From Candidatus Poribacteria bacterium (GTDB lineage: Bacteria; Poribacteria; WGA-4E; WGA-3G), in assembly GCA_965205025.1 (NCBI GenBank), contig CBDBFU010000021.1, forward strand, positions 1 through 64,000: DNA of 64,000 nt. The letters run 5' to 3'. This document shows, one piece after another, positions 43,184 through 60,135 of this stretch; position 1 is the stretch's first letter; each line of letters opens with the position of its first letter. Under the pieces are notes generated by a model, which was given only the letters and a program-made list of their open reading frames with translations, had not been told where the DNA came from and made no database searches. The position numbers were made by a program, and so were the translations under genes.

Positions 43184-44357
43184 GGGTGTGCAAAGTTTTT
43201 AGCATTAATTTACGTAATAGAAACGGATCAAATACATGTTCTTAATATAAACTGTATCAAATTCTAATTTCACACTTTTTCCATGAGACTTAAAATAAAA
43301 TGAAGAAAACATAAACATATAACAACTAACACATATATATCACAATAACATAAAATAAATTAAAAATATTTGTCATAATGCAAATAAAATGATACAATAC
43401 TATATCGTTCACTAATTATATACAAAAGCTAACACATTACTTGGAAGATACGAAATATTGTTTATGCCGTGAGAGTGTAACTCTCTTCTAATTATTTTGG
43501 CTAATTATTTACGCTTCTAAACTTTATGCCATATTCAACCAAATCCACTATCTGGAAAATAGGAAAATCTATGTTAGAATTACAACTAAAACATTCAGAA
43601 TTATCGCCTTTTGAGAATCGTTCTCAAAACATATATAGCCAGAATCTAAATAAGCAGATTCAGAGGAATATCAATGCGAATTCAACCGAATATTTTTTTA
43701 GTTTTTCAAATTTTAAAATTTTACTCCGATTAATCAAATCCTTTGTTATCCCAATCCACAACAGGGTTTTCGGCTCATTAAAAAGTAATTTCTTAAAAAG
43801 CAACTCAAAAAACTTGAAAAACTTAAATAACTCAAAAAACTTAAAATTAGACCGACTTCAAACAATACAGACTATCATACACACCAGAAAACTACACTGT
43901 ATCTCATTACTACGAAACGTCCATACAGATATAATTCTCTTCATAGAATTGGTGTTTCCCAATCCGTTAGTTCAAAATATAGAAAATACTAAGATCAAAG
44001 AATCCTCTAAATCTATGATTTATGAAATATGTTCCAATACCTTGTCAAAATCACAGGATAAGATATTTAACATTCAAACGATTCCAAATCAATGTACAAA
44101 AAGAAAAGTAAAAGACACAAAATTCAACCCCCACTTTATAATTTTTACAAATTCTTGTAACCTTAAAAAGTGGCTCTAAACCCAGTGTAGTACTGATGGG
44201 ATAGAGGTTTTACCAATGTTACACCATGTAACGAAAAGTGTAACTTTACTCAACATATTGATAGCATAAATATTACTATTGTGAAAAATGAAAAACTGTA
44301 AACTATAACCTAATAACCCTATGATCGTGATATTCATGCCAAAAACTTTACACACCC
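43184..44357. mobile_element. 1174-bp non-autonomous element bounded by 21-bp TIRs
   Basis: GGGTGTGCAAAGTTTTTAGCA (43184-43204) and TGCCAAAAACTTTACACACCC (44337-44357), 19/21 match; no transposase recognised. Confidence 0.6.
43370..43398 (+). promoter_or_regulatory. Putative sigma70 promoter in repeated module A (copy 2)
   Basis: TTGTCA-17nt-(TG)TACAAT. Confidence 0.55.
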
Positions 44358-44476
44358 TTTTGAGAATTATAGTTTATTCTTCACTACTATAATTTTGACA
44401 ATTCTATTTCAGAGGGGTAACTAAGAATCTAATGATAAGTCTATTTTTTGGAGTTTTGTATATCAAAAATACCGTC

Positions 44477-44884
44477 CTCCAGCGGGGTACTATGTGTCTA
44501 TTGAAAACAATATCGGAACAGTCTGGCACTCCAGCGGAGTGATATGTGCCAATACACTTCGTATGAAAAACATATTAGTACTTTAAAACACACTTAGGTT
44601 ATAGTGTAATTAACGTATGTGATTCACGGAGAATTGGTCTACTTTAAATTATAAACCCTTATAGAATAAGGGTTCGTAAAAATGCTCCGTGAAAGTTTCC
44701 GTGAATGGAATTGTGGATTTCTCAATGGTATATTAACAAATACAATAGTTTAGACAATTCTTATCCATGTTGAACAAATCAGGAGAATCCTACAAAAATA
44801 TCGCACTCAGGCGGAGTGCTAAGTCTATAGAATACATATCAGTACATTCTCGCACTCCAGCGGAGTTCTATGTCTATAGAATAC
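44477..44884. repeat. Two tandem pairs of GCACTCCAGCGGAGTG hairpin repeats
   Basis: Copies at about 44477, 44526, 44803, 44852 with about 49-bp period; inverted pair at 62682-62746. Confidence 0.8.
44607..44705. repeat. 99-bp structured repeat D (copy 2)
   Basis: 91/99 identical to 3815-3913. Confidence 0.92.
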
Positions 44885-44999
44885 CTATTGAAGTAAATTG
44901 ACTTTTCCGAATGCTAATAATGTAAACCAATCAAATAGAATTGGTATAATTTTGAGTTGTCTGAGTCGCGGATTACGCGGAGGAGAGGGAAATATAAGA

Positions 45000-45024
45000 G
45001 TCGGGAATCGGAGTTCCCTCCTAC
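45000..45024 (-). repeat. GTAG-type REP-C
   Basis: Reverse complement GTAGGAGGGAACTCCGATTCCCGAC; relatives at about 50142 and 54236. Confidence 0.7.
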
Positions 45025-45148
45025 AGAAGAGACTAATGAATAAATTGATGTCTATGTTGACAAAACTATACACACTCACGATCTGAAGATGTGGGTTAGG
45101 TGTCATACATAACCAATTTTAATCACTAAATTTATTGAGAATGTAAGC

Positions 45149-46024
45149 TTATCGTTCTAACCATCCCGGTAAAGTAATTGTCTCAGATAATTTCCATGCT
45201 GTATAAAACAGAGATGAAGTCCACCGTACAGCTTCCTTAGATCTGTCTTGCGTAAAGTCGAAGAGTTCTTTACTTGGCGCCTTAAGTTTCTGGTAATCTT
45301 CAACTAATTCATAAACTCTATCAACATGACTAAATCCATCCTGTATTTGTTTAGTTATTGCTGGTAATAGTTCTCCTACCTGTTTAACACTTTGATTTTT
45401 GGCAAGTTCCGAAGGATTTAACTTCATGATTTCAATGGATGAATCTACTTTTTCATGAATACCTCTATGAAGGATTGTCCCATCCTCTTGAACTATCCCG
45501 TCAAAATGGATAGTCAAATGCAAAGGTTGGCACATATCTTGTGCATAATGTGCAAGAAAACCTGCATATAGATAACATTTATACCGAATCATTGTGTTAT
45601 CTGGCCATTTTCTATATTCCGCGAAAGCGATTGCTAACCGTTCAGTCCATTCTGCCACAGCATAAGGTAAAAATCCAACCTTGCTTGGTACAAGATTCAT
45701 CTCAGCACAGAATTTAATAAAGGCATTTCTGTCTGTAGGAATTGGATTATCCTCTATGAGTTCAAGATCAAAGTAATGTTCTCCATATTCAGCTATCCGT
45801 GCATTTGGCATATTACTGTTTTTTGAAATATCAGGATCGTAGGCACTATGTGCAATCATCTTCTCTGCAGTGACAGATCTGAAGAATTCAGGCATTTCAT
45901 CAGGTAAGGTTTTTATAGTAGCTTGCGTGAGTATGTCATGTCCACCACCCCACCAAGCAAAAGCGGGTGTAGTGATAAATAAAAACAGGAGAAAAACAAT
46001 TGTATAGATACGTTTCATATTCAT
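45149..46024 (-). CDS. Secreted S1/P1 nuclease / Zn-dependent phospholipase C fold protein
   Basis: AFA-WWGGGH mature N-terminus, HYFDLE, HYAQDMCQPLH, IHE. Confidence 0.8.
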   Translation of the reverse strand: MNMKRIYTIVFLLFLFITTPAFAWWGGGHDILTQATIKTLPDEMPEFFRSVTAEKMIAHSAYDPDISKNSNMPNARIAEYGEHYFDLELIEDNPIPTDRNAFIKFCAEMNLVPSKVGFLPYAVAEWTERLAIAFAEYRKWPDNTMIRYKCYLYAGFLAHYAQDMCQPLHLTIHFDGIVQEDGTILHRGIHEKVDSSIEIMKLNPSELAKNQSVKQVGELLPAITKQIQDGFSHVDRVYELVEDYQKLKAPSKELFDFTQDRSKEAVRWTSSLFYTAWKLSETITLPGWLER

Positions 46025-46041
46025 CCTTTCAAAATGTTAAA

Positions 46042-46998
46042 TTAGTCTAATGTAAGATATTCTCCAGAATCTGTATCCTGCCATTTAAATTGAAGTTCAG
46101 TTGTTTCATGTGGTTTGAATGGAATAGCAACAGAATCAACGGTAGGACCAATTATATCAATATCATTTAGATCTGCAGTCCCATACCCTAATTCAGTTGC
46201 ATAGTGGAATAATCCAATTTCTAAGGGTTCAAAACCCATTGCCTTAGAAGTTACAGCGTCGGCAGCAAATACATCACCACTTGAAACAGCAATACCAAGT
46301 TGAACAGAATCTGAACCGCCTGGGCCATTTCCTTGTAACCCCAATGTACCATCAACTACTGCTATATCAGGTTTAAGGTAACGTGAGAGTCTAAGTAAAT
46401 TTATGTTTAGTGTCTGTGCTTCTCGAGGTAGTTCTCTATCTGCATGACTGAGATAACCGTGCATTTTGATTCGATCATCTTTATGTATAGTTCCCATAAT
46501 CATGTTCTTCATTGCAAGGGTTACAACCCCAGCATCATGCGTCTTGGCAATTGCAACGGAAATGGTACAGGGACAGTCAAGTACGGTTTTTGGCATACGG
46601 ACTGTTTCTTCAGTACGTCCAGCCAGAAACACCTTAGTCTGTTCCCACTCAGTTTCGGTATGTAAATCAATTAATTTAATAGGTATATCATATTCTGCTT
46701 GTAAAGCTTCATAACCAAATACTTGGAATGCTTCCCCAGAAAAAGATTCATTTGCGCCTTCGGCAATGATAGCTTCTTTTGGTGGATTCGGTGTACTTAA
46801 TAGGAAATCCAAGGTTCCACGTATAGCATCTACATGTGATGATGCGAGCTGGTTTGTATTTGATAAGAAATTCGGTTTTAATAAAACTTGTTCTTGTACT
46901 CTCGGTGTAATGTCGTCACGAATATTATCTAATGATTGGTAAACATTAGATCTTCTTCTTCCTGTCTTTGCTAAACCAACCTTCGTAGAGTTACTCAT
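46042..46998 (-). CDS. DUF362 family protein
   Basis: VLLKPN, AKTH..VTLAMKN, VVDG..GNGP, AADAV. Confidence 0.85.
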   Translation of the reverse strand: MSNSTKVGLAKTGRRRSNVYQSLDNIRDDITPRVQEQVLLKPNFLSNTNQLASSHVDAIRGTLDFLLSTPNPPKEAIIAEGANESFSGEAFQVFGYEALQAEYDIPIKLIDLHTETEWEQTKVFLAGRTEETVRMPKTVLDCPCTISVAIAKTHDAGVVTLAMKNMIMGTIHKDDRIKMHGYLSHADRELPREAQTLNINLLRLSRYLKPDIAVVDGTLGLQGNGPGGSDSVQLGIAVSSGDVFAADAVTSKAMGFEPLEIGLFHYATELGYGTADLNDIDIIGPTVDSVAIPFKPHETTELQFKWQDTDSGEYLTLD

Positions 46999-47047
46999 AC
47001 TTTAAATCTCCTCAGAATTAATAGAGATGTTTTGGGATAGTAAAATT

Positions 47048-47932
47048 TCATTTACTACCTAATATAGGTCTTAAAAATCCGTTATGTTTATCTAATAGAT
47101 TGCTTGCCTCAGTTTGGTTTATTCCTTTTTCAATCATAACTATCGCCGTTTTAGCACTTCCTTCAGCCAATTTTAATGTCTCTTGAGCGACTTGTGAATC
47201 AACACCGGTAATTGACTGAACGATTCGTATACTTCTTTGAATTAATTTTGAATTAGATGCATGAACATCTACCATCAAATTATTATATACTTTCCCAATT
47301 TTCACCATTGAAATCGTAGTAAGCATATTGAGAATGAGTTTTGTTGCTGTACCAGCCTTTAACCTTGTGGAACCGGTGATAATTTCAGGACCAACTATTG
47401 GTGTGATGAAGTGATTAATATATTCTTTCAAGTCATTTGATGGTGGTACACAACTGAGTAGAATCGTTGTGGCATTGAGAGAATTGGCTTCTTTTAATGC
47501 TCCTAATACAAAAGGAGTCCGTCCACTTGCTGCAATACCTATTAAGACATCATTAGAGGAAATACCATGTTCTCTTACTTCATAAGCTCCTTTATCTGGA
47601 TTATCTTCTGCTCCTTCAATTGAATTTCGTAATGCTTTATCTCCTCCAGCGATGATTCCTTGTACCATATCTGGGATTGTACTAAAAGTCGGTGGACATT
47701 CAGATGCATCTAACACTCCAAGTCGACCGCTTGTTCCCGCTCCAATATAAAATAGTCTACCACCGTTATTAAAAGCCTCAACAATCAATTCTATAGCGAA
47801 AGTAATAGCAGCTGATTCAGCTGCCACTGCATCAATAACTACTTTATCCTCATGATTGAATATACTAACAATCTCAGGAATAGTTTTTATGTCAATATCA
47901 ATGGACTTTGAGTTTTGTTGTTCGGTAATCAA
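47048..47932 (-). CDS. murQ: N-acetylmuramic acid 6-phosphate etherase
   Basis: GAGTSGRLGVLDASECPPTF, GSTRLKAGTATKLILNM. Confidence 0.97.
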   Translation of the reverse strand: MITEQQNSKSIDIDIKTIPEIVSIFNHEDKVVIDAVAAESAAITFAIELIVEAFNNGGRLFYIGAGTSGRLGVLDASECPPTFSTIPDMVQGIIAGGDKALRNSIEGAEDNPDKGAYEVREHGISSNDVLIGIAASGRTPFVLGALKEANSLNATTILLSCVPPSNDLKEYINHFITPIVGPEIITGSTRLKAGTATKLILNMLTTISMVKIGKVYNNLMVDVHASNSKLIQRSIRIVQSITGVDSQVAQETLKLAEGSAKTAIVMIEKGINQTEASNLLDKHNGFLRPILGSK

Positions 47933-47942
47933 AAGATGTAAT

Positions 47943-48869
47943 CTAATTACAGGAAGAATTTCTATAGAAGTATGATTTTGCTAAAAGTATTGCACCATCA
48001 ACTGGATCATTTATTGGAAACATTACAGAAATATTATCTATTTTTTCATATAATTTATATTTCAGGTTATCAGAAAATAGCCTTTGATGAATTAGGTTTC
48101 CACCATTCAGGACAATATTAATTGTATCCTTGAAAGTAGCTTGTCTTATTACTGACTCAATTGCACATACCAGTTCATCAGTCGCAGTTTCAATAATGTC
48201 AATTGCAGTCCTATCCCCGTTTTCCATTCCTTCAAATACAGCATCTGATAGTTGAGCAATTTCATTTCGTTCTGCTGCATGTACCCACCGTATCAATTGT
48301 TTTGGATCTTCGAGATTTAGTTGAGTAAGATATAATTCTGTTAATATGGTTGATGGCTGTCTATAATCAGACGCTTTCGCAACCGCTTGAAGTCCCTTGA
48401 TAGCAATGTCATATCCACTACCCTCATCCCCAATGAGATAGCCCCAACCTCCAGCACGAAATTCATTTCCTTGTGAATCAATTCCGTAGACAATTGATCC
48501 TGTTCCTGAGATGACGATTATCCCTTCTGGTTTACCTATTCCTCCAACCAATGCGATATGTGCATCGTGTGTTAGTATTCTCTGTGTTGTGATTTCAATC
48601 TTATCACAGATTTCATTGATTACTTTCTTGTCATCATCACGACCTAATCCTGCCATCCCAATACAAATGACAATGTCGTCATGGGTGCGATCTATCTGTG
48701 AAGTAAGAGTTTTTATTATATCATTTAATACTTGTTGTGTAGTTTCAACCCCAACGACATGATAGTTAGATGGACCATTATTTATCTTAGCAATTTCTTC
48801 ACCTTCGGTAGTGGTTAATACTCCAACCGTTTTCGTTCCACCCCCATCAATACCTATGATATAGTCCAT
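47943..48869 (-). CDS. BadF/BadG/BcrA/BcrD family N-acetyl-sugar kinase (MurK/NagK-like)
   Basis: GIDGGGTKT, ISGTGS, GGWGYLIGDEGSG; adjacent to murQ. Confidence 0.9.
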   Translation of the reverse strand: MDYIIGIDGGGTKTVGVLTTTEGEEIAKINNGPSNYHVVGVETTQQVLNDIIKTLTSQIDRTHDDIVICIGMAGLGRDDDKKVINEICDKIEITTQRILTHDAHIALVGGIGKPEGIIVISGTGSIVYGIDSQGNEFRAGGWGYLIGDEGSGYDIAIKGLQAVAKASDYRQPSTILTELYLTQLNLEDPKQLIRWVHAAERNEIAQLSDAVFEGMENGDRTAIDIIETATDELVCAIESVIRQATFKDTINIVLNGGNLIHQRLFSDNLKYKLYEKIDNISVMFPINDPVDGAILLAKSYFYRNSSCN

Positions 48870-49037
48870 TTTAATTTTAGCTTTGTCAGAAGCAGTAGTA
48901 ATGAAACTACAATGAATATATGTTCTCTACTTATGAGAAATGTGTTTTAGGTTGACATATCTTAGTGAATAAGTTACAGTAATTTATCATAAAATATACG
49001 ATAAAATCAATCATTTAATCGGATTGGGAGTTAAAAA

Positions 49038-50000
49038 ATGCCTCGTAAATTCTACATCTTTGTATTAATATTCATATCTGTGGTGTATTTAGGTTGTTCG
49101 AATGATTCATCATCAATTGTATGGAAACAGATTGATAGTGGAACAGAAGAACATCTATTCAGTGTCTATTTTTTAGATAAGAAGAATGGATGGGTATCTG
49201 GGGATGACGGTTTAGTCTTATCCTCATCAGATAGAGGTAATACATGGAATCAAAGTGAAACTAAGAGTGGGTTAACAGATACATTAACACGCGTGATGTT
49301 TTTAACTCCAAATAATGGATGGCTTGTAAGTAGGGGAAAGATACATTATACCAGTAGTGGTGGTAGCACATGGGGACTACAACATCAGATTCGTTCTGGT
49401 TCAGCTCAACCACCCGGTATATTAGATTTACACTTTGTAAATTCTGCTGAAGGTTGGGCAGTTGGGGGAACCGATGGTAAAGGAGTTTCAACTATCCTAC
49501 ATACGCATAATGGCGGAACAAGATGGGAGAAAGTAGCAAATCCTTCTGACAAGCATTTATGGGGAGTTTATTTTGTAGATTCAAGTTATGGATGGGTTGT
49601 AGGGGAGATGGGTGAGATATTACATACAAAAGATGGTGGAAAACAGTGGATTCGTCAGATAAGTGGTGCTGAACAACCTTTATTTAAAGTCCATTTTACA
49701 GATTTATTAAATGGTTGGATAGTTGGCACAAATGGATTAATTATACATACTTCTGATGGTGGCAGTAAGTGGAATCATCAACAGTCTAATATTAAGCAAA
49801 GTTTACGTGATGTTTTATTTCAGAATGAACAGGTTGGATGGGCAATTGGTGAAGAAGGTCTGATATTACACACGATGAATGGTGGGGAAACCTGGAATCC
49901 ATATCCATCCCCAACCACCAAAAACCTTCAAGACATATTTTTTTACAATAATACTGGGTGGATAGTAGGTGAAAAGGGAACGATTCTCATGGGTAAATAG
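49038..50000 (+). CDS. YCF48-like beta-propeller lipoprotein
   Basis: Lipobox YLGC; repeated GWxVG..G.ILHT.DGG..W. Confidence 0.88.
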   Translation: MPRKFYIFVLIFISVVYLGCSNDSSSIVWKQIDSGTEEHLFSVYFLDKKNGWVSGDDGLVLSSSDRGNTWNQSETKSGLTDTLTRVMFLTPNNGWLVSRGKIHYTSSGGSTWGLQHQIRSGSAQPPGILDLHFVNSAEGWAVGGTDGKGVSTILHTHNGGTRWEKVANPSDKHLWGVYFVDSSYGWVVGEMGEILHTKDGGKQWIRQISGAEQPLFKVHFTDLLNGWIVGTNGLIIHTSDGGSKWNHQQSNIKQSLRDVLFQNEQVGWAIGEEGLILHTMNGGETWNPYPSPTTKNLQDIFFYNNTGWIVGEKGTILMGK

Positions 50001-50022
50001 CGTGAAGACAAACATAAGTCTG

Positions 50023-50140
50023 TTATACCATTTCTATAAATGTCTATCCTATGAAGAGTTATTATGCATGTGATAAAATACTGCACAAACTGGAAGTTTA
50101 TGTTACATTAAAGAGACTATAATTATCAGAAATGGTATAA
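50023..50140. mobile_element. TTATACCATTTCT-family MITE-like element containing REP-A
   Basis: Perfect 13-bp TIR TTATACCATTTCT / AGAAATGGTATAA. Confidence 0.75.
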
Positions 50141-50215
50141 AATCGGGATCGGAACCCCCTTCTACAAAGAGGTTAATGCTTAAATTGACACCTATGGTTT
50201 CTATACTCGTCTCCC

Positions 50216-52492
50216 TTGCCCTCGCATTCACAAACCAACACATACGCTCACTACTACACTTTCAGGCTTTCTTCATCACAGAGCGTCACCATTGATCTGG
50301 AGTCCACCACCCCAAGTGATAACTACCTCCACCTCTACAACTACAGTTCTGGTCCGACACACCGAGCAGGCACACAGATCACTACTGATGATGATAGCGG
50401 CGGCAACCAGAATGCCGGTATAACACGGAGCCTTTCTGCATCACAATCCTATACCATTCAGGCAAGACCATTCTCAAGCACCACCGGTTCCTACACGCTC
50501 TCCATTGATCTTGCAGGTGTGACGCCTACCCCTACCCCGACACCGACACCAACTCCAACCCAACCAACCCAGCCGACCTGCTCGGCAACAACGAGGTCAA
50601 ACTGCGCTCTCTCAGAAACCACCTACGGCAACTCAAGCGGCTACTGCAACACTGCCTACGGCGACTGTCTCTACACCTGCAGCAATGGTTCATGGTTACG
50701 CACTGATAACTCCTGTACCAATACCCCTCCTCCTGAACAATCCTGCGGCTATACCGTCTCCTCACCGACTATTACAACGAGCGACCGCACCTGTACCGCC
50801 AGTCCGTATGAAGAAAAGCAAACCGACAGATGGAAGTATGTCTATCAGTATAGAATAGACGGCAATTGGCAGAGCAGCGGCACATTTGGCGATCTTAATA
50901 ACAATCAATCCTATACCATATCAGTCCAGCGGGCAAGACTTGAAGGATCCCACTGTTCCTCAGGCACCTGCAATGACAGCGGCAGGTGTGCCGGCAATGG
51001 CTGCACTTATGCCACCACCCCGCTGAGACCGACGGCATCTGCCGGTGACAGAACATGCACGATAAGTCACGCTGATGACAGTACCACTGCTAATGGTGTC
51101 TCTATCTACACCTATGAGTATCGCCAACAATATGGCACTGCCCAATCAAGCAGTGTGTTTACCGGCCTTTCAAACGCCAGCACCTATTATTTCCAGGTCC
51201 GCCGCAAAAACAACAGCGGCTCCTGTACCAGCTGGTCATCGTGGTCTACCGCAGTAAATTGTACTCCTCGCGATTCCAACAGTACTTGTTATAGTACCAG
51301 AAGACCGCAGTGGAGTACCAACTACGGCTGCCCGACGAGTGGTAAAAGCTACCAGTGCGGCGAAACCAGACCAACCAAAGTTTTCGCTCCCTGCATCACC
51401 GGATTAGACAGAAACTGCGCCGCGGTTGACTGCTCCACCCTCAGCACACCACAACCAAGTAAATCGTGCGGCTGTTGGGTAAGCAATTCTGCCTCCTGCA
51501 CCCCGAAACCCCCAACCCCTGTTCATGGCGGTTGGCGTCATCCCCCCGCAGAATCTGAAATTCCCTGCGGTGAGACCAAAACCTCAGAGTGTGACAACCC
51601 CGAACCAGCCAACGGCGGCAACCAATGCCCCACCAGCACAAAACAGACCAGAGTCGGAACGAAGTGCCAAACAAAGGCTGAGACATGTCAGGATGACGGG
51701 GAGGGAGGAAAAGAATGTAGGAGTTCAGATCCTCCCCTTTGCAACGCCAATAAATGCGGCTGTACCAATTATTTAAGCAAATACTGTAGTACCGTTACCC
51801 AAAACGGACAGGAAAGGGATGCTGTAAAATACTGCTTCTGTAGGATAGAGAATAATCAATGTGTAAAGGCCTGGAAAAATAAGACGATATGTGGTGATAA
51901 TGAGAGCTGTGCTAATCCTAAGAATTCCGACGCTTTCTGTGCTGCTCCCGGCAACTGTCCAACCCTCAATATCCCCACTGGTGGAGGTTGTCCCGCAGGA
52001 GAAGACTTCACTGACGAGGAAGATTCAGACACACACTACAAGTGGTACTGTGGTAGCACCAAATGTTCTGCTGAAAAAGGCTGCACCTCCCACACCGACT
52101 GCGGGGACTCCGAGTACTGTTCCGTCTGTAATATAAGAGGAGAATGTTCCGGTCGTGGGAGCTGTGAATCGTGTACCTGGGGAACAGAATGGTGTGAGGA
52201 CAATGCAATTAAACAGGCATGTAAAACAGGCATGGTGCTTGGATTCGGAGGAACAGGAAGAAAGCGGAAGTCGGACTCCTGCTCAGGTGACAAACCATAC
52301 TGTAGGCAAGGGGAATCGTACTGTACAGCGTGCAGGACTAATAACGACTGTTCCGGATCAACACCCTATTGCAGAGGGAAATGGTGTAACGAATGTACTA
52401 CTGACAGACACTGCCTATTAAAATCAGCGGCAAACCGCTACTGCGTAAAGGGTTCAAACGGTCAGCGCACCTGTGAGCGCACACGACAATAA
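50216..52492 (+). CDS. Cys-rich surface protein, probably 5'-truncated: PPC-like domain, PT linker, FN3-like segments, TSP1-like repeat, CxxxxDC repeats
   Basis: YYTF.L..VTIDLES..DDDSGG..GSYTLSI; VHGGW..CG..ECDNPEPANGGNQC; no signal peptide or SD. Confidence 0.75.
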   Translation: MPSHSQTNTYAHYYTFRLSSSQSVTIDLESTTPSDNYLHLYNYSSGPTHRAGTQITTDDDSGGNQNAGITRSLSASQSYTIQARPFSSTTGSYTLSIDLAGVTPTPTPTPTPTPTQPTQPTCSATTRSNCALSETTYGNSSGYCNTAYGDCLYTCSNGSWLRTDNSCTNTPPPEQSCGYTVSSPTITTSDRTCTASPYEEKQTDRWKYVYQYRIDGNWQSSGTFGDLNNNQSYTISVQRARLEGSHCSSGTCNDSGRCAGNGCTYATTPLRPTASAGDRTCTISHADDSTTANGVSIYTYEYRQQYGTAQSSSVFTGLSNASTYYFQVRRKNNSGSCTSWSSWSTAVNCTPRDSNSTCYSTRRPQWSTNYGCPTSGKSYQCGETRPTKVFAPCITGLDRNCAAVDCSTLSTPQPSKSCGCWVSNSASCTPKPPTPVHGGWRHPPAESEIPCGETKTSECDNPEPANGGNQCPTSTKQTRVGTKCQTKAETCQDDGEGGKECRSSDPPLCNANKCGCTNYLSKYCSTVTQNGQERDAVKYCFCRIENNQCVKAWKNKTICGDNESCANPKNSDAFCAAPGNCPTLNIPTGGGCPAGEDFTDEEDSDTHYKWYCGSTKCSAEKGCTSHTDCGDSEYCSVCNIRGECSGRGSCESCTWGTEWCEDNAIKQACKTGMVLGFGGTGRKRKSDSCSGDKPYCRQGESYCTACRTNNDCSGSTPYCRGKWCNECTTDRHCLLKSAANRYCVKGSNGQRTCERTRQ

Positions 52493-52590
52493 TAAATGCC
52501 CTACCGGTTATAGTTGTAGCAGGATACTTAGGAAGAAGTGGTGTAGTAAGTGAATTCTGCCGTCTTCCGACCGCACCCTACCCACAACCG

Positions 52591-52869
52591 CTATTTAGAA
52601 ACCTTCGGCAACCACGAGTTACACAACGACTCCAGCAAATCCGAGCCCGCGAACCCCGCGAGCAACGCCACCCGCCAATCGCCGTCAGTCAGCACACCCG
52701 CCACCCCGCCGACAACCACCGCCAACAGCAAGGAAAACAGCAGCTTCACCAGCTCAAACGGCTCCTTATCCCGCACCACATGTTTAGAAACACCCACCAA
52801 CCCCCGCACCAGCCCCCCGACCGCGCCGGGAACAACAGCAAGAGCAATAAACGAAGCATCAAAACTCAT
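52591..52869 (-). CDS. Small 3-TM membrane protein
   Basis: GAVGGLVRGLVG...LLAGFAGSDLLE; likely start MSFD. Confidence 0.65.
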   Translation of the reverse strand: MSFDASFIALAVVPGAVGGLVRGLVGVSKHVVRDKEPFELVKLLFSLLLAVVVGGVAGVLTDGDWRVALLAGFAGSDLLESLCNSWLPKVSK

Positions 52870-52941
52870 ATACACACAGTATACCACTACTGTGAAAAAG
52901 AAACCGACTTCTGCACAGTGCCGTCACTAGGTATACAAAAG

Positions 52942-52967
52942 AAACGAGCAACTTTCGTTGCTCGTTT
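52942..52967 (-). terminator. Intrinsic terminator
   Basis: AAACGAGCAAC-TTTC-GTTGCTCGTTT, followed by T-rich tail on the minus strand. Confidence 0.75.
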
Positions 52968-52982
52968 TAAGATCCAATATAA

Positions 52983-54190
52983 TCAATCATACTGGTTGGC
53001 GAGATACTTCTGGCACCACTTGAAACGGTTGGGGGCTCTTTTTTGTATCCCACCACCCAAAGATTCCTCTCCGACCATTCCAGTTTCCAGTTTCCAGTAC
53101 ATAGCACAGAATTCGGCGGCGTTCTCAAGTAAATCTGACTGGTAATAGTCACTCTGATCAAGCGTTCCCAGCCAATCTTTGCGCGGGATTTCTTGCAGAT
53201 CCTTTTCCCATGCCACTTTATAGGCCTCACCCTCAGGAGTGTTGCTCCATTTCCAGGCACGCCAACGACCATCGCCATGTAGCATAGCAACTGCATGTTG
53301 CCGCGCATGGGCGAGTTCGTGCATAAGGGTACTGTAATAAATTTTACCCCTGTCTTGAAGGGGGGGTAGACTCTAATAACAAGACCTCCGTAAGCCCCTC
53401 CTGGTACCCATGCCGAATCAGATGACTGATCAGCCATTCTATACAAGAGGTCATAGGGCAGTTTCTCACTCTCCAAAATAAAACGAACCGCGTCCGGCCA
53501 CCGTAATCCCATCAAGATAACACCGGGAGCATTGCCAAGACCTTCGCGTTCCTGGTATGCCGCATTGAAGACCTCATTTGGTCTTAAGTGTTGCAGCGCC
53601 GTTGGACGAGAACGGGAGACGATTACCTCTTTTGGCTCAAGGTACTGTCGCTCCACACGAAGGTGAAGCTCGTTCCCTGCCACATCTTCAAAGAGATAGT
53701 AACCGCCCTCATCGGTGACGACTTGCTCCCCTGTTCTCGGACCATTTGTTATGGTCACAAGTGCCTCTGAAACAGGCGCCACATAGTCAGCCATAGCAAC
53801 CTGCCCAACAAAATCCTCAGGGTTACTCTCCGGCGGCGCGTATTCTCTGTAAGGACCGGGAAAATCGAGCACCCATGCCGAAGGCGGTAGAATATCCGCT
53901 ATTGCCACACCCCGGAAATATTCTTGTGTTACCGGTTCTGCTGGCTCCGGCTCCGGCTCCGGCTCCGGTTTTTCCTCTTTTTTCGGCGGATCCTTAGGAT
54001 CCGGCTTCTTCACCTCACCGACCGATGTTATCGGTCCCGTCGGATCTCCCGGCTTCGGCTCAATAACTTCACCTCCACCGCTTATCACATCCCCAACTAT
54101 GTTTTGCTCGTTACAACCAGTAACAAGGACACTACAGAGAACAACAATTGCGAAGGATATCGCTGTCGTTATTGTATATCTTTTTATCAA
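52983..54190 (-). pseudogene. Lipoprotein with Pro/Glu linker, carboxypeptidase-regulatory-like domain and HExxH metallopeptidase domain, frameshifted near a C7 tract
   Basis: GGAG SD + TTG 54190, lipobox LVTGC; one extra base at 53360-53366 joins the frame to MHELAH..ENAAE. Confidence 0.75.
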
Positions 54191-54325
54191 TGTATAATCT
54201 CCATGGCTGCTAAAGGTCATCTGGTATAGCATTTGATTCGGAACTCCTCTCCTACAGAAGAGAAGATTGGAGAACGGAATTCACTTCTATCCAAAAACCT
54301 AATGCTTAAATTGTCTCTTTATGAG

Positions 54326-54697
54326 TTACAATAGTTTAACTACCCATGTTGACAGACATGCCACTAAGCCTAAAATTAGTATCCAATTTCGTGTTTTATT
54401 AGATAAACTTTCCCAAATATATATTGTCTTATTTGGAAAAAATGCAACACACAACGCAAGTCCAATTAGTATAAAAGCAAAAGGATTGAACATATAGGCT
54501 TGCAAAAAATTCCCTTGCGTAATTGAAAGACATGCACGTGTCATTCCACACCCAGGACACGGTACGTTAGTAATTGAATGAAATAGACAAGGAATCAATG
54601 AGACCTGTTCTGGAACCAACCCAACCCAAGCGGAATAAATACCTACCCCGAACAATCCAATTATAAATACACGTGCCAGATTCTTATGGTTAACCAT
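54326..54697 (-). CDS. DUF2752 family membrane protein
   Basis: PCLFHSITNVPCPGCGMTRA. Confidence 0.88.
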   Translation of the reverse strand: MVNHKNLARVFIIGLFGVGIYSAWVGLVPEQVSLIPCLFHSITNVPCPGCGMTRACLSITQGNFLQAYMFNPFAFILIGLALCVAFFPNKTIYIWESLSNKTRNWILILGLVACLSTWVVKLL

Positions 54698-55076
54698 CTG
54701 TTGTGTCCCCATATAATCTATTTATCTGGTATTGTTGTATTGCTAAAGATGCTATTCCAATACCAAAAATTGCTAATAATACACATATAATTGGTAGGTT
54801 ATGATCATGTAATATATCGTTATTACTTTGTATCTCATTAATCCCACAAGCCATTTTGTATTCATAATATATTCCAAAAATACCACAAGTGAGAAATGAC
54901 AGTATTAACCATAGCCAAAAAGAGTAGTCATTTCTACCTAACCAGACATTTAATGTATCCATCTGTTTATATTGCCAATAGAGACCGTATATTCCACAAG
55001 TAATAATTGTAAGAAGTATCCCAACTAATATACTTCGTCTGCCATCAGCTTCAGGATATGGATATTGATTTAGCAT
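54690..55076 (-). CDS. DUF4234 family membrane protein
   Basis: Duplicated LxxxTCGIYGxYW motif. Confidence 0.85.
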   Translation of the reverse strand: MLNQYPYPEADGRRSILVGILLTIITCGIYGLYWQYKQMDTLNVWLGRNDYSFWLWLILSFLTCGIFGIYYEYKMACGINEIQSNNDILHDHNLPIICVLLAIFGIGIASLAIQQYQINRLYGDTTDG

Positions 55077-55103
55077 ATTAAATTCCTTTTAATTGTATTG
55101 TAT

Positions 55104-55216
55104 TACCATTTCTAAATAATGATTACCCATTAGCACTTGAAGAAACCCCCTAAATCCCCTTATCAGGGGGACTACTAAGAGTATTCATAATAGGAACTAT
55201 TTAAATAGAAATGGTA
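55104..55216. mobile_element. TACCATTTCTA-family element with a different core (CCCCCTAAATCCCCTTATCAGGGGGACT)
   Basis: TACCATTTCTA / TAGAAATGGTA ends; core at 55146-55173. Confidence 0.7.
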
Positions 55217-55289
55217 TAATGATGAATTCTACCAGACATTTATTCTTCAACTTTTAGAATTCTGAAATCAATGCCTGGTATTTTCAAAT

Positions 55290-56339
55290 CTATTTACGTG
55301 GTAATTGCACAGTGTTTGGTACAATTATTTCCCCTGCAATAATTTTCTGTTTTATCGTTTCGACCTGGTTTACAATATCATCAGTAAGACTCAATTGATT
55401 ATGTTCGTCTAAAGTATAGTCCACACCACCACCCTCAATACCGATAAAACGGATTCCTGGTATGAACATCCCGTTTACTGTTTCGTTTATGATTGTCTGT
55501 ACAGAGGAAGATATCCCTTTAACCATGCTTGTTAATACTATTCCAGGAGCGAGATGATTGCCATTTGAATCCACCCAAATGATATATTTCATTTGTTCTT
55601 TTGCTGCTTCAAGTACTCCTTGTCCCGAACCTCCTGCAGCAACATATATTACATCCACCCCATCTTCATATAAAGTTAATGCTATCTCCTTTGCTTTATC
55701 TGGTTGATTAAATCCAGTTACATCATCACTTATGTAGTTGACATATACTTGTATATCTTGATTAATTTCATGAATACCTGTGATATATCCTGCTTCAAAT
55801 TCGCGTATCAATGGAACATCAACTGCACCTACAAATCCAATTTTATTTGTCTTGGTCTTCAATGCTGCAATTGTCCCAACCAGAAAAGATCCTTCGTTTG
55901 ATTTATAGTTAACAGAAGCAACATTTGGTAGATCAATTGCTACATCAAAGATAGCGAATTTCACATTAGGAAATTTTGGTGCTACAGATTCAAGTATTGA
56001 TCCCATTTGGTATCCTGCAGTTAGAACAAGATCTGAATTTTGTGCTGCTTCACTTAATATCATTTCGGTGGCAACAGGATCCTCTTCCATGCCGTTTACT
56101 TCAGTAAGGTTTATCCTCAGTTCCTCCTGTGCTTTTTGGACTCCTATGTGAAATTCAGTACAGTATGCAGCAAATCCAACACAGTCATTTGGGTATACCA
56201 TTGTTACCCGAATGGAATCTGGTTTTTCTTGAGATATAATATCAGTTGAAACGACATTCTGTACATTTTCACAACCATTTAAAATAGTTAGTCCTAATCC
56301 AATTAAAATAAGTAAAATAAAAATGCATCTTGTGATCAT
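55290..56339 (-). CDS. BMP family ABC substrate-binding lipoprotein
   Basis: Lipobox LNGC; EGSFLVG, IGFVG, AAGGSGQG. Confidence 0.9.
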   Translation of the reverse strand: MITRCIFILLILIGLGLTILNGCENVQNVVSTDIISQEKPDSIRVTMVYPNDCVGFAAYCTEFHIGVQKAQEELRINLTEVNGMEEDPVATEMILSEAAQNSDLVLTAGYQMGSILESVAPKFPNVKFAIFDVAIDLPNVASVNYKSNEGSFLVGTIAALKTKTNKIGFVGAVDVPLIREFEAGYITGIHEINQDIQVYVNYISDDVTGFNQPDKAKEIALTLYEDGVDVIYVAAGGSGQGVLEAAKEQMKYIIWVDSNGNHLAPGIVLTSMVKGISSSVQTIINETVNGMFIPGIRFIGIEGGGVDYTLDEHNQLSLTDDIVNQVETIKQKIIAGEIIVPNTVQLPRK

Positions 56340-56450
56340 GTTTACTCCATTAAATAAGAAATATAAAGAATAGAATTATTGTATATTCTAAAACTAAAGA
56401 ATCATCTTAAATATATATGAATTCATGTAATGTCAAATCGAAAATACATA

Positions 56451-56912
56451 TTATAGGTAACATTGATGGTAAATCTGATAAGGGTTAGTAGTATATACTC
56501 TGTAAATGACACGTCCAGAAAAATCAACCATATCTTTCATTCTATCAGATACTGCAGGATTGGTGATATGCTGTAGTGCAGATTGACGAGAAATCCATAT
56601 TGTCTCTAAACTTTCATCACTTGTCTCTAATTCTCCTGAGAGATAATCCCCCAAAAAGCCAAACATTACCTTGGTTGGAGATTTTATATTAGAGTAAATA
56701 CCTACCAACGAACCGATTGAAGCATTAATACCAGTTTCTTCTCGCACTTCTCGGATCAAAGCATCAATAATATTCTCACCTTCCTCAACCTGTCCACCCG
56801 GAAATTCCCATCCACGACGAGGACTTTTTATTAGTAAGATATTTCCATCTGGATGTCTGATTAATCCTGAGACAGCAACAATATGAGTAGGGTGGTTCAT
56901 AGTTGTTTCCAT
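56451..56912 (-). CDS. NUDIX hydrolase
   Basis: PGGQVEEGE..ALIREVREETG. Confidence 0.93.
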   Translation of the reverse strand: METTMNHPTHIVAVSGLIRHPDGNILLIKSPRRGWEFPGGQVEEGENIIDALIREVREETGINASIGSLVGIYSNIKSPTKVMFGFLGDYLSGELETSDESLETIWISRQSALQHITNPAVSDRMKDMVDFSGRVIYRVYTTNPYQIYHQCYL

Positions 56913-56973
56913 ATATAGATAGAATTATGAATAAAAGGATAGTTAATGGATATGATTACAGTATGAAGAAATA

Positions 56974-58593
56974 TTATATACCTATTGCGTATCCATCGCG
57001 TCTTGGATCAGCGCCACCCATGAATGTTCCCTCTTCAGTATCAAATGCAATTCCGTGTCCACCGCCAACGGTTGCAGTCCAATCAGGTAATTCCTCCACA
57101 TCGTGTCCACGTGCAATCAATGCTTCTCGGATAGCCACAGGAATCCGTCCTTCCATGGCAACATGTGTTCCTGGATTGATTAGACGAATCCGTGGAGCTT
57201 CAATAGCAGCCTGAATATTCATTCTGTGCTCAATTAGGTTTAAAACCATCTGGAGTGTAGTCTGTAGGATTCCGTGACTACCGGGTGTGCCGATAGCAGC
57301 AAAGGGTCGATCTTTCTTCCATACCTGACATGGTGCCATACACATCTCAATTTGTTTATGTGGACCAATTACATTTGGACTGTCTGGTTCTCTATCAAAC
57401 CAATACATAAAATTATTTAAGAACATGCCTGTATTTCCAAGTATTGTCCCTGAACCAAATGGTTGACCAAGACTTTGTGTTACTGCCACGATATTTCCTT
57501 CAGCATCTGCAGTATCAAAATGTGTTGTACACTCCGTCGTCCAATCATCAGCGATTATCTCTCCTGGTAGTTTATCTTTTGTCCAACGTTCGCCGCCACT
57601 GATTGCAGCAGTTTCAGAAATTCGATCACGTAATGACTGTGCATGATCTTTAGATAAGAGTTTTTGAATGGGAGGGTTGGGTGTAGGTGCATATTCTGCA
57701 CGATCCGCACTTGCAAGTTTAATTGCTTCAATGAGAAGATGTAGATATTCTGCTGTATTATGTCCGAGATTACGCAGGTCGTCGTTTTCAAGAATATTGA
57801 ATGTCTCAAGATATTGGAATCCAGAACATGGTGGTGGCGGACAGAAAATCTTATAATCTTTGTATTCAATAGATAATGGATCTTGCCATTCTACCTTAAA
57901 GTCATTAAGATCTTTTTCCGTGATTAAACCATCATTTTCTTTAGAAAACCTTACAATTTCTTTAGCTATGTCACCCTTATAAAACACCTCAGTTCCACCT
58001 TCAGCAACCTTTCTAAATGTATCCGCTAAATCCTTTTGTATCAATAACTCTCCAGGTTTAGGTGTTCTACCCCGTGATGCTATTACTTCATCAGCTCTCT
58101 TTGAGAAATACGATTGTGCGCCGGCAATAAAATCAGCATTTTTAACTGTTACGGCATAACCATTCTCAGCTAATTCAATAGCAGGTGTAAAGACATCTAA
58201 AATGTCCATACTACCGTATTGTTCTAATAATGCTAACCATCCACCACAACCACCAGGAACCATTCCAGAACGTATACCAATCTTTTGTGAATCTTGTGTT
58301 GGAAAGGCATCAAGTGTCGCGTTATATGGAGCAGTTCCTAAATAATCAATCACATGGTGTATCTTATCTTTTGCACTATAGAGAAGGATATACCCATTTC
58401 CTGCAATACCAGACATATAGGGTTCAACTACATTTAGCGTAGATGCAACAGCAATTGCAGCATCAAAGGCATTTCCCCCAGCAAGAAGCATCCGAACCCC
58501 TGCCAAGCTTGCAAGAGGATGAGCACTTGTAACCATACCACGAGTACCAGTTACAGTAGATCGATGTGTTAAACCATGTGATGGGAATGCCAT
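56974..58593 (-). CDS. ggt: Gamma-glutamyltransferase family protein
   Basis: GGNAFDAA, TTHF nucleophile, GTPG, GGADPRRDG. Confidence 0.93.
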   Translation of the reverse strand: MAFPSHGLTHRSTVTGTRGMVTSAHPLASLAGVRMLLAGGNAFDAAIAVASTLNVVEPYMSGIAGNGYILLYSAKDKIHHVIDYLGTAPYNATLDAFPTQDSQKIGIRSGMVPGGCGGWLALLEQYGSMDILDVFTPAIELAENGYAVTVKNADFIAGAQSYFSKRADEVIASRGRTPKPGELLIQKDLADTFRKVAEGGTEVFYKGDIAKEIVRFSKENDGLITEKDLNDFKVEWQDPLSIEYKDYKIFCPPPPCSGFQYLETFNILENDDLRNLGHNTAEYLHLLIEAIKLASADRAEYAPTPNPPIQKLLSKDHAQSLRDRISETAAISGGERWTKDKLPGEIIADDWTTECTTHFDTADAEGNIVAVTQSLGQPFGSGTILGNTGMFLNNFMYWFDREPDSPNVIGPHKQIEMCMAPCQVWKKDRPFAAIGTPGSHGILQTTLQMVLNLIEHRMNIQAAIEAPRIRLINPGTHVAMEGRIPVAIREALIARGHDVEELPDWTATVGGGHGIAFDTEEGTFMGGADPRRDGYAIGI

Positions 58594-58595
58594 AA

Positions 58596-58880
58596 TTAAC
58601 TCCTATTTAATACTTTTAATAGTTGATTCCACCCTAATGACCATAACAATCTTCTTTCATTAATGTTATGTTGACAAAGTATCTTGTTATCTATCTCAAT
58701 TACGGGAATATTATCCTTATACTTAGTAAATAAACCCATATTCTTAGTAATGTCAATTTCTTCAATCGAAATATATGACAATTTAGTTTTGATTCTATCG
58801 ATAACTATTTTTGCTTTATCACAGAGTTCACAGTCTGGTTTTGTATAGAAGTGTAGGTTAATCGGTTCAGTTTTCAACAC
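58596..58880 (-). CDS. Glutaredoxin-like (DUF836) protein
   Basis: YTKPDCELC, IPVI. Confidence 0.82.
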   Translation of the reverse strand: MLKTEPINLHFYTKPDCELCDKAKIVIDRIKTKLSYISIEEIDITKNMGLFTKYKDNIPVIEIDNKILCQHNINERRLLWSLGWNQLLKVLNRS

Positions 58881-59151
58881 GGTACCTGCGATAGAAATAG
58901 ATGTTTAGCATGAACAGATTAGATATTCAATAGGTAATGATTTCAATTCAGGAAAGGATATTGAAGGTTGATAGAAAATATCCTGTAATATTCCTCCAAT
59001 CCCTATATGAGTTTAGCACAAGGCACTAAATTTAGCACTTACTTTTCACATGAACTAATATGTGAGGTATGATAGAATCACTATCAACACAAGGTTTTAT
59101 TAGCAATTAATCAACTATGAAAACAATCAATAGAATTGTGGAGAAGATAAT

Positions 59152-60135
59152 ATGAGACTTGCACAATATGGTATTTCACATGACCATGCCTCTGGGAAAG
59201 CACGTGTGATGAAAGAGAGTAATGAAATTGAGTTTGCTGGTGTTTATGAACCATCAGATGAAGTGAGACAGACCCTTGGTAAAAGTGACACATACGATGG
59301 TGTTTATTGGTTTGAATCTAAAGAAGAAATGCTTAATGACGAATCTATAGTCGGTATTGCTGCACAAGGACGTGTATCTCAGAATCTTACCTTTGCTCGT
59401 GAGATTCTTGAACATGGAAAACACGTGTGGTTTGACAAACCCGCTGGAGATAATCTTGAAGAATTTAGAGAAGTGTTAGAGATGGCACAAGAAGATGAAC
59501 TACACGTCCAACTCGGTTATATGTTTAGATACAATGCAGGATTTCAGTTTATACTTGATTGGGTAGAATCAGGTAAACTCGGTGATATTTTTTCAGTCCG
59601 TGGAAGAATATCCTCTGGTCTTTCAAACGACAGTCATTGGAAACGGTGGGATTCCATTGGTGAACATTCAGGAGGAATAATGTTCATACTTGCATGTCAT
59701 CTCACAGATATTATTGTTGCTTTGTTGGGACGACCAACCTATGTGACACCATTTAGTCGACACGATGGTCATGATGTTCCTTGGTATAGAAACAATACAG
59801 CAGCAGTGTTTGAGTATCCAAGAGCATTAGCAATTCTTGAATCTACGGCATTAGAGATTGATTCAGGTAAAGCAAGACGATTGGAAGTATATGGAACCCG
59901 TGGTAGTGCGATTCTTGAACCACTTGAACCACCATCTCTACGGTTATGTCTTGATAGTGATCGTGATGGATTTGTCAAGGGATGGCAGACTGTTCCTGTT
60001 GAACCTCGACCACGTTATGTAGAAAGTCTACGTGCATTTGTTGCTGATATACGGGGTGAGAAATCTCCTGATCGGTCATTGGAGCATGAATTTATTGTAC
60101 AGGAGACGGTTTTGAGGGCAGCAGGGATAATGTAG
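59152..60135 (+). CDS. Gfo/Idh/MocA family oxidoreductase
   Basis: HVWFDKP, LGYMFRYN, GGIMFILACH. Confidence 0.88.
   Translation: MRLAQYGISHDHASGKARVMKESNEIEFAGVYEPSDEVRQTLGKSDTYDGVYWFESKEEMLNDESIVGIAAQGRVSQNLTFAREILEHGKHVWFDKPAGDNLEEFREVLEMAQEDELHVQLGYMFRYNAGFQFILDWVESGKLGDIFSVRGRISSGLSNDSHWKRWDSIGEHSGGIMFILACHLTDIIVALLGRPTYVTPFSRHDGHDVPWYRNNTAAVFEYPRALAILESTALEIDSGKARRLEVYGTRGSAILEPLEPPSLRLCLDSDRDGFVKGWQTVPVEPRPRYVESLRAFVADIRGEKSPDRSLEHEFIVQETVLRAAGIM

Follow-up and report, generated by a model that had tools for sequence, protein, structure and literature searches.

A probably acquired GC-rich cassette of predicted surface-protein genes in a variable intergenic slot of a sponge-associated Poribacteria genome

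Introduction

Classical integrative genomic islands and the small integrase-less islets found in variable slots are the closest described counterparts of the element analyzed here, a GC-rich island of about 4 kb carrying the open reading frames (ORFs) ORF1, ORF2, and ORF3, located in the first 64 kb of contig C21 (hereafter the window) of a 5.66-Mb, 33-contig genome of a sponge-associated Candidatus Poribacteria bacterium. The island shares with classical integrative islands an atypical composition and the absence from close relatives, but differs from them in having no integrase, tRNA target, or attachment (att) site, and the 14-mers at its flanks come from a dispersed 14-copy family. Similar to the integrase-less islets, it shows atypical GC content, GC content at third codon positions (GC3), and tetranucleotide (4-mer) use, its place is taken by other content in the nearest relatives, it carries accessory surface genes, and insertion-sequence (IS) debris lies at its border. 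Unlike such islets, it has a diverged second copy in the same genome, and the cassette keeps its GC-rich make-up in several AT-rich genomes. Among the papers listed in a literature search on horizontal transfer and GC content in Poribacteria, none dealt with such islands. We propose that horizontal transfer brought this 4-kb accessory cassette, now in partial decay, into a variable slot and that the repeats at its flanks are incidental host elements, a reading to which we give a probability of roughly 0.75.

The repeats at the borders also have described counterparts. The flank elements resemble repetitive extragenic palindromic (REP) elements and the REPIN-RAYT systems in being short, hairpin-prone, intergenic, lineage-specific, and present in many copies. 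REP systems are not known to mobilize gene-sized DNA, a point at which no search was aimed, and the evidence presented below speaks against such a role for the flank REP elements too. The element immediately to the left of the island agrees with miniature inverted-repeat transposable elements (MITEs) of the IS630 family in its length of 118 nt, in perfect 13-nt terminal inverted repeats near-identical to the ends of a full IS630-family element of this genome, and in its approximately 200 copies. The island differs from a composite transposon or MITE-bounded cassette in having a MITE at one end only.

Regarding the predicted protease encoded by ORF3, the closest described proteins are the M34 peptidases PPEP-1, PPEP-2, and PPEP-3 and other proteins with the lethal-factor fold, with which ORF3 shares an HExxH motif followed by an invariant Glu, export from the cell, and structural neighbors at Z scores of 7.7-8.7. 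Unlike PPEP and lethal factor, ORF3 shows no sequence-level similarity to these proteins, adds a lipoprotein anchor and a transthyretin-like domain, and belongs to a family found in Poribacteria-type genomes only. PPEP-1 and PPEP-2 are M34 enzymes released from the cell, and the surface proteins that they cleave are the products of a directly adjacent, oppositely oriented gene (PMC8610288).

Results

Composition of the Island

In 500-nt windows, the GC content of the island was 0.47-0.55 over positions 50250-54249 compared to 0.30-0.41 in the flanks, an overall step from about 0.36 to 0.52 at 50.2-54.25 kb. The genome-wide distribution (22,530 windows of 1 kb) had a mean of 0.385, a standard deviation of 0.036, and a 99th percentile of 0.481, which together with the 500-nt windows confirms the rise to roughly half noted in an earlier reading of this DNA (hereafter the original prediction). 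The GC3 of ORF1, ORF2, and ORF3 (0.52, 0.68, and 0.47-0.51) can be compared with a host mean of 0.296 (standard deviation 0.055; 2041 long ORFs) and with 0.20-0.29 in the genes adjoining the island. Since the GC excess is also present at synonymous third positions, we read the composition of the island as foreign. Correlation between the 4-mer profiles of island and host was only 0.12, with values of 0.07 and 0.16 for the two halves, while in random 4-kb pieces of the host used as control it averaged 0.915, with a 1st percentile of 0.654; the per-half profile that the original prediction had proposed as a check therefore finds both halves to be outliers for this host. As a separate observation, the largest compositional anomaly of the genome is a run of raised-GC segments (0.46-0.50) of about 45 kb on another contig (G000:C15:412000-457700, where G000 denotes the genome under study).

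None of the five island ORFs searched against Pfam (0/5) matched an integrase, as the original prediction had stated, or a transposase, and the mobile-element protein genes nearest to the island lie elsewhere in the genome. No tRNA or tmRNA genes were found within positions 44000-60000, and no Rfam family reached the gathering threshold in 48000-56000.

The Slot Between ycf48 and DUF2752 in Related Genomes

The genome under study was grouped with genus g1; its nearest relative is G004 and the next nearest is G018, and two further genera of the order, g6 and g9, are relevant below. The gene to the left of the island encodes a Ycf48/BNR-like lipoprotein with syntenic orthologs in 31/31 genomes searched (own genome counted), and the DUF2752 gene to the right has orthologs in G018 and G004 with 83-85% identity. 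The order murQ-nagK-ycf48 / DUF2752-DUF4234-BMP-nudix-ggt is common to G018, G004, and G008. In the first two, the slot in its middle is occupied by a low-GC Peripla_BP_6 gene (401 aa); in G008 it is about 50 bp long. No ortholog of this Peripla_BP_6 gene was detected in the genome under study, where the best match had 38% identity. Homology with G004 ends at about 50018-50022, just before the MITE, and restarts at about 54327. Among the ycf48 loci of nine relatives, two were followed by the binding-protein gene, one directly by DUF2752, and one by DUF2752 at a distance of about 850 nt, and the remaining 5/9 had no DUF2752 within the approximately 1.5 kb covered. None of the three ORFs was found in G004 (99% complete), and neither ORF2 nor ORF3 in G018 (90% complete), in which ORF1 was not searched.

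Second Copy and Phylogeny of the Cassette

A second copy of the cassette is located among native genes on contig C9 (C9:163251-165974), with 81-84% nucleotide identity to the copy in the window. In the C9 copy, ORF3 (420 aa) and ORF2 are intact and ORF1 is reduced to its C-terminal 316 aa. This truncated ORF1 is abutted by a full IS630-family element (HTH_32 and DDE_3 in two overlapping frames; G000:C9:166431-167479, or L001 7432-8480). Homology between the two copies extends from about 51400 to about 54215, which places the flanking repeats outside the shared unit. On one side of the C9 copy, the Gfo-OMT-lectin order is conserved, and in 3/3 relatives the 9-10 kb region upstream of the ortholog of Gfo contained none of the genes of the other side; because conservation is one-sided, the C9 copy sits at a synteny break, at which no clean empty site can be demonstrated.

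The divergence between the two copies is uneven along the cassette. Synonymous divergence (dS) was 0.59-0.91 for ORF3, 0.095 for ORF2, and 0.235 for the ORF1 C-terminus, with nonsynonymous to synonymous ratios (dN/dS) of 0.13-0.22, 0.50, and 0.72, respectively. Orthologs of the genome under study, taken as a yardstick, gave dS values of 0.27-0.38 relative to G004 and 0.43-0.76 relative to G018. Since the dS of ORF3 exceeds that of the G004 orthologs, the split of the ORF3 copies seems to predate the divergence from G004, which does not have them. An old split fits either two arrivals from related donors or one old arrival followed by losses elsewhere, and faster synonymous change during the decay of GC content could blur the dating. 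The ORF2/ORF1 part looks to have been homogenized later than the ORF3 split, resulting in a mosaic of divergence. The proposal that the island is bipartite, with a division at a terminator near 52942, thus holds in part: the terminator was confirmed as an 11-pair hairpin, and the halves differ in their divergence from the C9 copy and in their best taxonomic matches.

A collection of 5.8 billion proteins contains 45 members of the ORF3 family, the named ones being Poribacteria, and Candidatus Poribacteria was also the name carried by relatives retrieved with an island protein. Among genomes of the order, the family was present in 23/151, including 5/37 in g1, 12/60 in g9, and 5/20 in g6, and was not found in the 14 other genera. 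In the phylogenetic tree of ORF3 (31 rows, leaving out two rows of a named metagenome-assembled genome that duplicate G015, and with the window copy read through with X at its frameshift), the window and C9 copies are sisters (100/99) nested within a g9 clade (100/100), and the other g1 copies fall into two separate groups. The background GC content near the g9 and g6 homologs is 0.43-0.52, close to that of the island. In addition, eight separate ORF3-family matches occur on a single contig of a g9 genome (G100:C1), a local expansion.

Parts of the cassette also occur together in other genomes. In G061 (genus g6), a homolog of ORF2 lies about 200 nt downstream of the ORF3 homolog on the same strand. 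At locus L028 of G079, a 368-aa ORF3 homolog faces a full-length 1086-aa ORF1-like protein within a 4.4-kb island of GC 0.53 in a background of 0.39-0.43, beside a 370-aa ORF that, judging from its sequence, may be an IS605-type TnpB. The 4-mer profile of the island in the window is most like that of this G079 cassette (r 0.77).

Repeats at the Borders

The identical 14-mer reported for both flanks (TAATGCTTAAATTG) was recovered as an exact match at each of them, and the REP-C remnants were likewise confirmed, one on the left and two on the right. With nhmmer, the left composite was matched at 50136-50198 (E 1.9e-15) and the right composite, which ends 12 nt short of the stop codon of the DUF2752 gene, at 54259-54321 (E 1.5e-11); a hairpin of five pairs can form at 50145-50158. 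The 14-mer has 14 exact copies on 10 contigs, compared to 0.19 expected from base composition, 35 copies with up to one mismatch, and 151 with up to two. This excess over chance is explained by a dispersed repeat family and not by a special status of the two flank copies: a tail such as ACGCCTATRG follows the 14-mer in 12/14 copies, including the left flank and excluding the right one, and the composite profile gave 82 matches in the genome, 7 of them on C21, with 104 matches for the REP-C core. For the left copy, the closest counterpart over the 35 nt upstream of the 14-mer is a copy on C3 (83%); the right flank copy reaches 66% and takes rank 11/13. The right copy has its best match at C3:183930-184003 (84%) and shows, over 72 nt, 76% identity with C3:183990 and 35% with the left flank copy. 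The two flank copies are thus nearer to copies elsewhere than to each other and are not products of one duplication.

In related genomes, exact copies of the 14-mer numbered 10 in G004, none in G018, G079, and G099, and 1 in G126, and the contig of G004 with the slot carries none of its copies. This distribution indicates that the flank repeats are native to the lineage and that they entered the slot after the split from G004. The MITE, which the original prediction did not mention, gave 106 matches in the genome by blastn and 201 by nhmmer, and its ends match 12/13 those of the IS630-family element on C9; no MITE was found at the right end of the island, where the nearest profile match is 3962 nt away. 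Three matches to Y1_Tnp (PF01797) are located on C27; they may be RAYTs or plain IS200 transposases and might serve the REP composite family. Further composites on C21 were observed at 44995-45056, on the same strand and 5.1 kb to the left of the left copy, and as an inverted doublet at G000:C21:87921-88022. The slot of G018 (L012 5743-5960) contains a single MITE end and, after it, a tandem array of four REP units that all have the linker AAGTTGACNCCTATGG, which is related to the 14-mer. Both the MITE end and the array are missing from G004, suggesting a fast turnover of repeats in the slot.

An association between repeats and island borders was examined at the 122 ends of 61 raised-GC segments, using a distance of 400 nt and 5000 random positions. 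A composite, REP-C core, or MITE was near 6/122 segment ends and near 4.6% of random positions, indicating no enrichment. Moreover, same-strand composite pairs 1-10 kb apart occur in at least eight other places, and the pair 44995/50136 encloses native genes.

Genes of the Cassette

The features of the island and its borders are listed in Table 1.

Table 1. Coordinates of the island features, border repeats, and adjoining genes in the window.
Feature	Position	Strand	Description
Ycf48/BNR-like lipoprotein gene, left flank	49038..50000	+	Native; Pfam PSII_BNR E 3.1e-47; GC3 0.26
IS630-type MITE	50023..50140	.	~118 nt; perfect 13-nt terminal inverted repeats TTATACCATTTCT; directly left of left repeat
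Left REP composite	50141..50198	+	Singlet; one REP-C remnant, 14-mer linker 50174-50187, family tail ACACCTATGG
Short frame	50176..50295	+	Signal-peptide-like start (MLKLTPMVSILVSLALAF...); ATG inside the 14-mer; out of frame with ORF1; from three-frame translation
ORF1	50216..52492	+	758 aa; weak PPC domain, Pro/Thr linker, FN3-like and Cys-rich modules; GC3 0.52
ORF2	52591..52887	-	98 aa; small Gly-rich membrane protein; GC3 0.68
Terminator-like hairpin	52942..52967	-	11 pairs; directly after ORF3
ORF3	52983..54232	-	Lipoprotein; Pro/Glu linker, CarboxypepD_reg-type (transthyretin-like) beta-sandwich, C-terminal HExxH (HELAH) domain
Right REP composite	54238..54313	+	Doublet; two REP-C remnants, 14-mer linker 54300-54313, no family tail
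DUF2752 membrane protein gene, right flank	54326..54712	-	Native; Pfam DUF2752 E 1.5e-16; GC3 0.29

The frame of ORF1 opens right after a stop codon within the left repeat, with TTG as its only start and no ATG, and translation of three frames revealed no in-frame signal peptide, in agreement with the description of a first ORF that begins without one after the left element. The 5' end of ORF1 is probably damaged, and the short out-of-frame reading frame listed in Table 1, which extends into the first 30 nt of the island, may be its displaced leader or a chance product of the repeat. A consensus scan listed no promoter-like site at the left REP linker. The encoded protein is rich in Cys, Thr, Gly, and Pro (GC content at second codon positions, GC2, 0.61). 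Its C-terminal 330 aa are 70-73% identical to the C9 copy, and it aligns with the 1086-aa protein of G079/L028, which has an N-terminal membrane anchor, at 30% identity over 460 aa. Among the 151 genomes, ORF1 gave only partial matches to proteins of three other g1 genomes, and in the 5.8-billion-protein collection only PPC-domain matches with coverage of up to 18%. No relatives of ORF1 were confirmed in JGI metagenome contigs (69 pattern matches, 0 confirmed), and an Atlas feature search with its C-terminal half returned scores of 0.75-0.76, to which we gave no weight.

The ORF2 product shares 90-92% identity with its C9 copy and has 17 homologs with identities of 56-91%. Pfam, NCBIfam, and PHROGs gave no family assignment above threshold; weaker matches to CrcB, YabQ, and a holin PHROG (E 0.087) and unnamed clusters of about 100 aa, some of them viral, from an Atlas feature search (score 0.94) were kept as leads only. 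One homolog with 76% identity (P0062) carries the source label Candidatus Kaiserbacteria, an observation that would correspond to cross-phylum sharing or to a binning error.

ORF3 is broken by a 1-nt frameshift in a 7-base homopolymer (53360-53366), which has the same length in a contig from sequencing run X1 built by another assembler and is among only 11 G/C runs of at least seven bases in the whole genome. The frameshift could serve to switch a surface protease by strand slippage, or ORF3 could be a fixed pseudogene. As in the C9 copy, translation of ORF3 likely starts at a TTG (54190) that is preceded by GGAG. Across 31 ORF3-family sequences, residues H309, H313, Q316, and E374 are invariant and E310 nearly so, with E374 as the presumed third zinc ligand. 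An AlphaFold model of the protein had a mean pLDDT of 83, with residues 25-72 forming a disordered linker. A structure search against representatives placed Certhrax, anthrax lethal factor, PPEP-2, and PPEP-3 (4fxq, 1yqy, 6fpc, and 9g0j) at the top for residues ~247-420, with Z of 7.7-8.7, root-mean-square deviations of 3.7-4.8, and 143-158 residues aligned, such Z values being common for unmatched models according to the tool's own warning; for residues ~129-250, transthyretin-like domains ranked first in the same search. Foldseek returned no match for ORF3 at E <= 0.001, and a profile search of viral_contigs found no ORF3-family relatives (71 pattern matches, 0 confirmed).

Similar to the arrangement of the PPEP genes, ORF3 and the ORF1-like gene are oppositely oriented neighbors, and ORF1 contains a Pro/Thr linker. 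Based on this arrangement and linker, we tentatively suggest, by analogy, that ORF3 may be a protease and that an ORF1-type surface protein may be its target, a possibility that we hold to be less likely than not.

Contiguity of the Assembly

Two sequencing runs of one study, X1 and X2, contained 97% and 82% of the sampled words, respectively, and next to none of these words were present in run X3; none of the listed runs containing such words is on record as RNA. In run X1, a Logan contig covering 53858-55166 joins ORF3, the right repeat, DUF2752, and DUF4234 with 0 differences, and a second contig (50111-51577) joins the MITE, the left repeat, and ORF1. The suspicion of an assembly chimera through repeats raised in the original prediction is therefore largely refuted: the right junction is crossed without mismatch, and the left join could be followed only as far as the high-copy MITE.

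Discussion

The foreign origin of the island, as inferred in the original prediction, is supported by its GC3 and 4-mer use, by its absence from the slot and from the genomes of the nearest relatives (in G018, as judged from ORF2 and ORF3), and by the ORF3 tree. Several observations weigh against the acquired, incidentally flanked cassette that we propose. The 4-mer use of the island is unlike that of g9 background DNA (r 0.29), and no close donor copy was found in the sampled genomes, where the best ORF3 match outside the own genome had 62% identity. The genome-specific block includes the whole MITE on the left and reaches 12 nt beyond the right 14-mer, so that repeats and island could have come or been rearranged jointly. 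Composites of the same orientation occur at both ends in only 1/61 raised-GC segments, and a composite is found within 400 nt of just 1.3% of random positions, so that the double flank is not trivially due to chance. On the left, the native contig of another assembler stops at 50133 inside the high-copy MITE, and short-read contigs do not settle this join. Both informative runs belong to one study, and the genome may have been assembled from these very data. In run X2, a contig with 0 differences that covers the 5' half of ORF1 (50301-51577) has a depth of 42 compared to 12-22 in the flanks, and a 495-nt contig matches 53858-54238 only and then diverges, over 114 nt, exactly from the start of the right repeat, suggesting that the island may be present in a second context in the community of this run. 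Regarding the function of ORF3, no Pfam or NCBIfam protease family matches it, the profile of its family found no protease among PDB sequences at E <= 10 apart from a chance-level IrrE row, and the modeled protease assignment depends on a fold similarity at a commonly seen Z value.

Some of these points also favor other explanations. An assembly chimera or binning contaminant, in which a piece of a co-occurring GC-richer genome was joined through shared repeats, would be in line with a 33-contig assembly with an estimated contamination of 4.3%, with the left native contig that terminates in the MITE, and with the uneven depth in run X2, where the even coverage proposed as a check was not observed. 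We nevertheless consider a chimera very improbable, given that a single contig links ORF3, the right repeat, and two native genes with 0 differences, native synteny carries on at both sides of the island within one contig, and host-lineage-specific repeats adjoin it; in addition, a second, diverged copy is embedded in native genes on C9, and another genome has a similar island made up of the same cassette. Alternatively, the genes could be ancient residents whose GC richness was kept by selection or amino acid composition and not brought by recent transfer. The similarity of the island to the 4-mers of the G079 cassette despite only about 30% protein identity, the amino acid bias and high GC2 of ORF1, and an inter-copy dS of ORF3 above that of the G004 orthologs are consistent with long residence. 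However, the enrichment at synonymous third positions, the failure to find the cassette in the nearest relatives (with the limit on ORF1 in G018 given above), and the polyphyly of the g1 copies of ORF3, with the own copies nesting in g9, make residence of this kind quite unlikely.

The original prediction had favored capture at or by the repeat system, that is, entry or exit of the island through recombination between REP composites at the 14-mer, with the repeats as a landing pad. Exact 14-mers in direct orientation at both edges, in the sole raised-GC segment of 61 with composites at both ends, would be expected from such an event, and the tandem REP array with a MITE end in the slot of G018 indicates the type of array in which the island may have landed. 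A weak REP doublet about 330 nt from the ORF3 homolog of G008 and the X2 contig that departs at 54238 point in the same direction. Against these stand the different subtypes of the flank copies (singlet and doublet), which are less like each other upstream of the linker than they are like C3 copies, and the completeness of the left copy, which retains its tail and does not fit with one composite split by an insertion. The C9 and G079/L028 copies have no such flanks, so that 1/3 cassette copies is bracketed, the 14-mer is native to the recipient lineage and has only one chance-level match in the searched genomes of the donor-like genus, and the ends of GC segments show no enrichment. Capture by the repeats is thus unsupported by our data, and we regard it as unlikely. 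It is equally hard to credit, and would be a long shot, that REP linkers act in general as recombination points taking cassettes from co-resident Poribacteria into REP-rich intergenic slots; if true, a repeat family seen as selfish would also serve gene acquisition. It is more plausible, though still tentative, that the protease, surface-protein, and membrane-protein genes form a self-contained module that has moved repeatedly between genera of Poribacteria while keeping its GC-rich make-up, by a vehicle that was not seen.

For the acquired cassette with incidental repeats, a course of events can be proposed. The slot lies between two convergent native genes and is filled differently in different members of the genus. 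A sister genus of Poribacteria with higher GC content would have supplied the cassette, or its protease gene at the least, from its gene pool, and entry may have taken place by recombination within the variable slot, without a dedicated integrase. The cassette is predicted to encode cell-surface proteins, namely a large Cys-rich secreted protein, a small membrane protein, and a lipoprotein metalloprotease that, by analogy, would cut the neighboring surface protein at its proline-rich linker. Of the two copies in the genome, the one in the window would be decaying, having probably lost the in-frame start of ORF1 and suffered the frameshift in ORF3. The MITE and REP composites would be mobile repeats of the host, either resident in the slot beforehand or settled at the new gene-free borders, and the shared 14-mer would represent a conserved linker of the repeat family and not an attachment site.

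Altogether, these results indicate that matching repeats on both sides of an island in this repeat-laden genome are no evidence of a mobilizing mechanism, which calls for caution in the interpretation of its other regions. They also point to a predicted family of lipoprotein proteases, found in Poribacteria-type genomes only and paired with a large Cys-rich surface protein, that appears to be exchanged between genera sharing sponge hosts. As a surface cassette exchanged between such genera, it may bear on the attachment of the symbionts to the host matrix, or on their detachment from it.

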